A stretch of 64,000 bases of DNA from Bispira polyomma (taxonomy: Eukaryota): contig OZ287750.1 of assembly GCA_965649765.1 (NCBI GenBank), positions 68,014,001 through 68,078,000 on the forward strand. The letters run 5' to 3'. The position numbers and the translations under genes are program-made. The notes below the pieces were generated by a model that saw nothing but the letters and a program-made list of their open reading frames with translations, had not been told where the DNA came from and ran no database searches. Of the stretch, positions 60,159 through 60,465 are shown piece by piece; the stretch's first letter is position 1, and the number at the start of each line of letters is the position of its first letter.

Positions 60159-60465
60159 CTGTTTTGTAGCAGTAACCAAGTGTGAGTGTCCTCTGTATAA
60201 CCATGTCCCCCTCTGTTTTGTAGCAGTAACCAAGTGTGAGTGTCCACTGTATAACCAATTTCCCCTATGTTTTGTAGCAGTAACCAAGTGTGAGTGTCCA
60301 CTGTATAACCATGTCCCTCTCTGTTTTGTAGCAGTAACCAAGTGTGAGTGTCCTCTGTATAACCATGTCCCCCTCTGTTTTGTAGCAGTAACCAAGTGTG
60401 AGTGTCCTCTGTATAACCAATTCCCCCTCTGTTTTGTAGCAGTAACCAAGTGTGAGCGTCCACTG
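60159..60465 (+). repeat. 54-bp minisatellite (5.7 copies) spanning acceptor and first 26 exon nt
   Basis: Directly visible; acceptor AGs end at 60169, 60223, 60277, 60331, 60385, 60439. Confidence 0.97.

Follow-up and report, generated by a model that had tools for sequence, protein, structure and literature searches.

An Acceptor-Side Exon–Intron Boundary Minisatellite Capped by an Inverted Copy of Its Own Unit in a MyT1/ST18-like Gene

The minisatellite at 60159–60465 (+ strand) of the window, that is, the whole 64,000-nt stretch of DNA analysed here, is a real acceptor-side "mirage", an exon–intron boundary minisatellite with a 54-bp unit. It is most likely one more exon-boundary minisatellite, and its new point is that the array is capped by an inverted copy of its own unit. 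Furthermore, junction arrays are dense in a non-deuterostome animal, with six of ten minisatellites placed in this way within 64 kb. As regards the use of the repeated acceptors, it is fairly probable, judging from the sequence, that the terminal acceptor dominates, that in-frame leakage is minor and tolerated, and that the resulting Cys-rich peptide is without function.

Structure and Reading Frame of the 54-bp Array

The array, as delimited by TRF, has a period of 54, 5.7 copies and 93% matches, which bears out the repeat described in the first-pass annotation of this DNA. Each 54-bp unit is composed of 26 nt of exon start and 28 nt of intron end, the latter carrying a branch-point-like TATAAC with its A at −24, a pyrimidine tract and TAG, with no intervening AG. 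The six TAG acceptor ends (60169, 60223, 60277, 60331, 60385 and 60439) are spaced exactly 54 nt apart and, as had been noted, all six read TAGCAG, with CAG ends from 60172 to 60442. Acceptor copy 1 (60167–60172, + strand) lies inside a predicted hairpin and matches the unit on its intron side over 11 nt only. Copies 2–5 (60221–60388, + strand; TAG ends 60223 to 60385) are in-frame, stop-free decoys followed by 12 nt and GTGAGT, and the terminal acceptor (60437–60442, + strand; TAG 60439 or CAG 60442) runs into what is probably the ancestral exon start and would be the main site. The features of a boundary minisatellite are found together in this single haplotype: a unit that spans the junction, intact splice signals and turnover of the minisatellite type, with near-identical mosaic units, four different sequences among the five upstream units and a truncated first unit.

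Read from the phase-1 donor at 57789 of a 10-exon gene model, the unit is stop-free and in frame, and each of the 12 acceptor choices (six TAG and six CAG) leaves the ORF open. It had been proposed that zero to five modules reading AVTKCECPLYN(HV/QF)PLCFV could be added to the protein in this way. The module sequence is confirmed, with three Cys per module and with or without His, which is kept in three of the five upstream modules and lost in the other two. Every acceptor is indeed open and in frame; however, acceptor 1 sits within the predicted hairpin, so the range is probably zero to four. The proposal is thus partly supported by the sequence, extra Cys-rich modules in the protein being possible, yet without special indication. 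The arrangement of AG, 12 nt and GTGAGT, pointed out as a possible in-frame microexon, is likewise present in all five upstream units, with GTGAGC in the terminal unit; all ten routes (12 or 9 nt) are stop-free, but the donor is weak (5.2 bits).

Among the upstream units, reading in the gene frame makes four of the six variant sites synonymous, against an expected share of 0.27 (p 0.047), and none of the six is synonymous in either of the other frames; with an Arg-to-Cys change included, the count becomes four of seven (p 0.086). A MAFFT alignment hinted at one more, decayed unit ahead of acceptor 1, but this was rejected, with 88–93% of null windows scoring equally well. No Rfam match is found within 57500–61500. 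In a downstream intron, a 13-nt exact match to a 17-nt, intron-derived part of the unit is present at 62209–62221.

The in-frame, stop-free and Cys-rich state of the array is not beyond chance expectation. When duplications of 25–60 bp were simulated at the nine array-free acceptors of the window, 2343 of 7929 (0.295) were both 3n in length and stop-free, and 87% of those with 3n length (2343/2682) were open, because pyrimidine tracts seldom hold stops. With five arrays, one or more would be open with a probability of 0.83, and of 198 open 18-aa modules from the simulation, 59 contain at least three Cys, so that chance suffices. Metal binding by the modules, also suggested in the first-pass annotation, is unsupported, the search for a Cys/His metal-binding domain having given neither a known-domain match nor a confident fold. 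In Pfam, no stretch of the module passes, and its only match is an artefact of summing over the repeats; the best match in the ESM Atlas reaches 0.88, with none at 0.9 or above; and AlphaFold, a weak test on a single sequence, gives a pLDDT of 46. Against the linkers of homologs, the module scores 18, under the shuffled mean of 20.5.

Host Gene and Genomic Neighbourhood

The window has a GC content of about 35% and contains two intron-rich genes, both on the + strand. The downstream gene, which hosts the array, has six C2HC zinc-finger starts that keep the order of the MyT1/MyT1L/ST18 family, one finger matching PF01530 with an E value of 1.1e-12. Of its 411 homolog matches, the best 120 are mostly named MyT1 or ST18. 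By its sequence, the gene can be assigned to this family, whose multiple C2HC fingers it carries in the family order. MyT1 proteins are neural transcription factors.

The hand-built model of this gene comprises 10 exons (40849–63867) and 2155 codons with no stop, and all of its internal junctions are canonical splice sites. The array leads into a 901-nt coding exon (60440–61340, + strand) that starts with a degenerate (D/E)RVLRP motif. The exon upstream of it (57737–57789, + strand) encodes the end of the third zinc finger and closes with the phase-1 donor AAG/GTGAGC. The model also includes a 4715-nt coding exon (41699–46413), inside which an internal 30-bp (10-aa) coding repeat is located at 44776–45400, and a two-copy 111-bp repeat (52949–53167) immediately follows the donor at 52947.

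At the insertion point lies a linker whose length in 40 homologs ranges from 23 to 80 aa and which undergoes alternative splicing in Haliotis. Use of just the terminal acceptor gives 14 aa, below all 40 homologs, a short linker that could be filled by a candidate 96-nt cassette exon (58526–58621, + strand), the best of five candidates under a window-trained PWM. The cassette would be in frame, running from phase 1 to phase 1, and the frame result at the array is therefore independent of it; no significant match was found between the cassette and the linkers of homologs. Its acceptor directly abuts a strong donor, CAG/GTGAGT, in the manner of a recursive splice site. A 35-nt exon ending at this donor (58525), which would shift the frame, was rejected.

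The gene directly upstream (2151–17007) consists of five exons of a WD40 protein, which join cleanly and have WD40 relatives by homology. We take it to be EIPR1/TSSC1, and human EIPR1 and MYT1L presumably share a neighbourhood like that of the WD40 and MyT1-like pair found here.

In a zinc-finger tree of 13 rows, built after 16 of the 28 chosen homologs had been dropped because they lack the motif block, a 99/97 split separates the deuterostomes from a side that holds the molluscs and the window. In a tree of 29 rows it lies outside the branch of the sampled deuterostomes (99/95), a branch within which the long-branch Nematostella is also placed, and outside the sampled gastropods, bivalves and cephalopod (99/98). 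The host is thus probably a spiralian, and the placement stops at "non-deuterostome, probably spiralian" because annelid, chiton and brachiopod are missing from the tree set.

Among 7999 scored candidates (targets of up to 2000 aa, the model exceeding 2155 aa), no transcript-derived protein crosses the junction. The search for near matches returned two of 8000 candidates, P0121 and P0125, both of them single-exon ORFs. A search of representatives gave 11 matches, comprising three homologs of the unique exon and eight that match the Cys-rich repeat part only; four of these eight were inspected, proved to be unrelated repeat-derived ORFs and were left out of the analysis.

The Ancestral Copy

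ORF P0121 is 57% identical to the unique exon over 326 aligned positions. It reads CVVAAPKCERVLRP, with a single copy, an identical acceptor position and the Arg that is found in the terminal unit only. This evidence for a single copy covers about 10 codons ahead of the exon start, which are unrelated read-through of the intron; over these codons no repeat is present, and CECPxY is absent from the homolog set. Of the 85 homologs in which the end of the preceding finger is present, 40 have the (D/E)RVLRP motif, with Arg in 39 of the 40. The motif Arg is retained by the terminal unit and replaced by Cys (TGT) in all five upstream units. Because P0121 shows a single copy together with the motif Arg, which the terminal unit alone has kept, we infer that the ancestral exon start is preserved in the terminal copy.

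The Arg-to-Cys change in the upstream units is of the CpG type and also creates GTGAGT. The donor scores of GTGAGT and GTGAGC are close (5.2 and 4.9 bits), 12 of the 14 true donors score above GTGAGT, and GTGAGC is the actual donor hexamer at 57789 and 61340. For these reasons, the GTGAGT of the upstream units is, on the sequence evidence, a by-product, and the contrast between GTGAGT and GTGAGC carries little weight.

An Inverted Arm and a Predicted Hairpin over Acceptor 1

Immediately at the upstream edge of the array, an 18-nt inverted copy of the exon part of the unit is located at 60144–60161 (+ strand), a feature missed by the first-pass annotation. It pairs with 60170–60187, 8 nt apart, with 16 of 18 positions complementary and 12 bp perfect, and acceptor 1 lies between and within the two arms. 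The predicted hairpin at acceptor 1 reaches −25.5 kcal/mol (z −5.96), with none of 200 shuffles as good, while the other five acceptor copies fold at −6.1 to −10.6 kcal/mol. As a result of the inverted arm, the intron side of copy 1 matches the unit over just those 11 nt, and its pyrimidine fraction is lower, at 0.65 against 0.76–0.82 in the other copies.

Perfect arms of at least 12 bp occur in 11 of 1500 random windows. An inverted copy of an array's own unit was found at one of 20 array edges and in none of 2000 null windows; at one edge in 20, inverted arms are unsupported as a general trait of junction arrays. The inverted arm is most simply explained by a local template switch. In short template-switch mutations, an inverted copy of adjacent sequence replaces a short tract.

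Each of the six copies can pair with the arm, with predicted energies of −22.8 kcal/mol for copies 1–5 and −21.5 kcal/mol for the terminal one. At equilibrium, its pairing would fall on copy 1 (0.89) and copy 2 (0.11), with less than 0.002 on each of the others. According to this folding model, acceptor 1 is likely masked, leaving zero to four modules rather than zero to five, and probably five acceptors rather than six are open because the hairpin folds in acceptor 1.

Other Junction Arrays in the Window

The placement of minisatellites on splice junctions is far beyond chance in this window. Of ten minisatellites (period 25–54, at least 3.9 copies, the coding 30-bp array being left out), six span one of 29 verified splice sites, a number that 100,000 random placements never reached. 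The putative exons at 28463, 33382 and 36078 were left out of the verified set, and the N-termini of homologs gave no credible match to them. The four further minisatellites, with units of 51, 33, 41 and 31 bp (28226–28545, 32114–33446, 36078–36744 and 15611–16049), adjoin candidate exon-like segments with AG/GT ends, possibly 5′ exons, one of which is 11 nt long and does not fit the frame. If the four candidate segments are real, junction-linked arrays would amount to as many as ten of ten.

The acceptor arrays with 25-, 40- and 41-bp units (1615–2153, 16137–16836 and 63523–63771) copy 3–4 nt of exon, and the nearest decoy is frameshifting in all three. A 44-bp acceptor array of 43 copies (46746–48701) lies before zinc finger 2, with the true exon start at 48684. 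Open decoys number 0/19, 0/14, 0/5 and 3/41 in the 25-, 40-, 41- and 44-bp arrays, respectively, and the ORF is thus broken by 76 of 79 upstream copies across the four. Since only three of these copies keep the ORF, the organism would evidently select the acceptor copy next to the exon as a matter of routine, if these genes work. On the donor side, a 51-bp array (4427–5006) copies about 38 nt of exon, and none of its nine decoys is open, each of them adding a stop.

In the 44-bp array, just 2 of 42 units are 48 nt long, the two that lie closest to the true acceptor, and both are open and in frame; unit shuffling gives P 0.07 for the nearest 48-nt unit alone and 0.0035 for both. Its open decoys are three of the nearest four, with none beyond. 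The nearest decoy is open and in frame in both arrays with a long exon copy, namely the 54-bp array (26 nt) and the 44-bp array (18 nt). Each 44-bp unit also carries GTAAGT 3 nt past the AG, copied from the exon. A shared mobile-element origin of the 44- and 54-bp units was rejected, their score of 29 standing against 28 and 27 for other acceptor-spanning segments.

In four of the five acceptor arrays (1615, 16137, 46746 and 60159), the first copy matches the unit over only 5–11 nt upstream of its AG, and in the 41-bp array the first copy is a full unit. Among these acceptor arrays, the inverted arm explains the short first copy of the 54-bp array only.

Acceptor Choice and Rival Explanations

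In the preferred explanation, a tandem duplication across the intron–exon boundary would have been followed by minisatellite-like amplification and shuffling, in a host genome where such junction arrays are common. The spliceosome would mostly take the terminal acceptor (60439/60442), because only the terminal copy precedes full exon sequence, the decoys returning to intron-like sequence after 26 nt. At +27 to +54, the terminal copy has an exon-likeness of +0.50, and the decoys have values of −0.50 to −0.95. A window-trained matrix scores the six acceptors at 4.4–10.2, against 1.1–10.3 for true acceptors under leave-one-out, and the terminal acceptor is not the top scorer (6.5, against 10.2 for copy 4). 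Since the matrix cannot separate the six acceptors, the cue for the choice must be downstream. In 1986, Reed and Maniatis reportedly found that the choice between duplicated splice sites depends on the exon sequence beside them. Acceptor 1 may have been further disarmed by the loss of part of its pyrimidine tract to an inverted copy of fold-back, template-switch-like origin. Low-level leakage to the nearest one or two decoys would be likely, adding 18–36 aa to a length-tolerant linker, and the leaky array would survive because the frame stays intact. The Cys-rich peptide would then be a by-product of reading a TGT-rich pyrimidine tract.

Several points count against this terminal-acceptor reading. 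All six acceptors score in the range of true ones, copy 4 ahead of the terminal one, and the single copy in P0121 is seen over about 10 codons. The 901-nt length of the exon may weaken exon definition, and the 14-aa linker predicted with the terminal acceptor alone is short. By analogy, the reading would also be weakened by the human experimental precedents, which are donor-side with the authentic site first, whereas here that site would come last. Moreover, the synonymous changes at four of six variant sites could lend weak support to a leaky use of the decoys. The hints of decoy use (synonymy, 48-nt units, exon-copy length and linker length) are post hoc and few in number, and the 51-bp donor array, where a long piece of exon is copied and each decoy adds a stop, tells against them.

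If such hints are followed, the array may already be coding, as a frame-filtered leaky array in which several acceptors (60223–60439, zero to four modules) are used appreciably, which is possible but unlikely. Arrays that copy 18–26 nt of exon could then not be fully silenced, selection would preserve the frame and the absence of stops in those copies that can be used, and the hairpin would cap the series. The contrast between open nearest decoys in both long-exon-copy arrays and frameshifting ones in the three short-copy arrays is in line with a frame filter, as are the paired 48-nt units and the clustered open decoys of the 44-bp array and the synonymous share of the 54-bp unit variants. However, the contrast involves five arrays (2/2 against 0/3, Fisher p 0.1) and is a post hoc pattern; the 48-nt pair may stem from one event, and array edges are reported to diverge regardless (PMC3087553). 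The filter is also at odds with the 51-bp donor array, where no decoy is open in spite of its exon copy of about 38 nt, and with the Arg-to-Cys and HV/QF changes tolerated among the 54-bp units. A more extended version, doubtful as a joint claim, holds that long-exon-copy arrays are tamed by frame and hairpin because they cannot be silenced: near copies would be retained as, or converted to, 3n and open units, the most upstream copy hairpin-locked, and the outcome a MyT1 isoform ladder, with zero to four Cys-rich 18-aa inserts here and zero to two 16-aa inserts before zinc finger 2. If true, coding repeats arising from intron sequence would have been caught in the act.

The upstream units could instead be spliced as exons of 12 (or 9) nt through AGT/GTGAGT, followed by a later acceptor. 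This microexon route is quite improbable, although its ten routes are stop-free and the host gene would be a neural transcription factor. Neural microexons combine a strong donor with an upstream UGC enhancer; here the 5.2-bit donor lies below 12 of 14 true donors, and TGC is found in −40 to −4 of none of the six copies. Furthermore, the terminal copy has a near-equal site (4.9 bits) within the real exon, and the next acceptor is 42 nt off, against 385 nt for the shortest verified intron. A regulated series of zero to five Cys/His metal-binding modules, functional in the transcription factor, is very improbable. The modules are all open and in frame, hold three Cys each, with or without His, and adjoin a zinc finger, but their Cys content is at chance level, His is gone from two of five units and acceptor 1 is predicted to be masked; the absence of CECPxY from the homolog set, the linker score below the shuffled mean, the Pfam artefact and the pLDDT of 46 also speak against a domain. 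A control of the docking/selector kind, suggested by analogy, in which the arm would pair with copy k, loop out acceptors 1 to k and so set the number of modules, is highly improbable. It would draw on the complementarity of the arm to all six copies and on the rarity of such an inverted flank (1/20 array edges, 0/2000 null windows), but the predicted equilibrium lies almost wholly on copies 1 and 2, and a one-off template switch accounts for the arm without selection. Finally, the copy number could be an assembly artefact or a private allele, boundary arrays being described as length-unstable (PMC3087553), but the four distinct sequences among the five upstream units and the inverted arm copied from the units make this scarcely credible.

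With the terminal acceptor as the preferred choice, the locus becomes a natural experiment on how the spliceosome picks the last of many near-identical acceptors. The 54-bp array would reveal the true leak rate that frameshifting arrays hide, because in-frame errors should escape nonsense-mediated decay. The hairpin cap, the 48-nt units of the sister array and this expected escape from decay make it a good locus for gauging acceptor choice. A frame filter, if true genome-wide, would document how intron sequence can pass directly into new coding repeats.

Comparison with Known Systems

As in NAGNAG tandem acceptors, TAGCAG at all six copies would add or remove one residue. Unlike typical NAGNAG sites, it is merely inherited here through duplication, and the array's NAGNAG is the only one among the 15 verified acceptors of the window. 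In the docking site/selector system of Dscam1, one sequence is complementary to many repeated copies. Unlike Dscam1, the predicted pairing of the arm is short-range, with copy 1 dominant.

Human boundary VNTRs resemble the array in that they repeat a splice site, the pseudo-sites being silent or used weakly. The donor-side repeats of F7 (IVS7), LMNB2 and PDGF are reported to use the authentic site only, and in 6-16 and CBS (IVS13) the two nearest pseudo-sites are also used (PMC1557585). In the ABCA7 intron 18 VNTR, retention of one unit has been described, out of frame (PMC5954066). As these reports present them, the human VNTRs reiterate the donor with the authentic site first, whereas the array here reiterates the acceptor, probably with the authentic site last. 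The upstream-scanning rule put forward for F7 cannot explain the array, because the authentic site comes last. In a narrow-term search of open-licence main texts, no report of boundary arrays in spiralians, or of hairpin-capped ones, was found; Additional file 4 of PMC3087553, outside that search, could show frame or edge features.

That junction repeats can change gene structure is an already published idea. "Mirage" repeats across exon–intron boundaries have been described in amphioxus for Adh3, the globins BflGb6/BflGb9, TnC and PGBD5, are reported to leave regular splicing undisturbed, and have been put forward as raw material from which new introns and exons may arise (PMC3087553; PMC3902484). 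The array edges diverge and the arrays are length-unstable (PMC3087553). Unlike the amphioxus mirages, the array described here belongs to a host outside the sampled deuterostome branch (99/95), and it combines copies that are all in frame and open with an inverted-arm cap, neither feature being mentioned in the accounts that these papers give of the mirages. In those same accounts, the mirages are like the 54-bp array in repeating the 3′ end of an intron and the 5′ start of an exon in tandem, in keeping the splice signals intact and in occurring several per region, and the 10–72 bp range of the Adh3 mirage includes the 54-bp unit.
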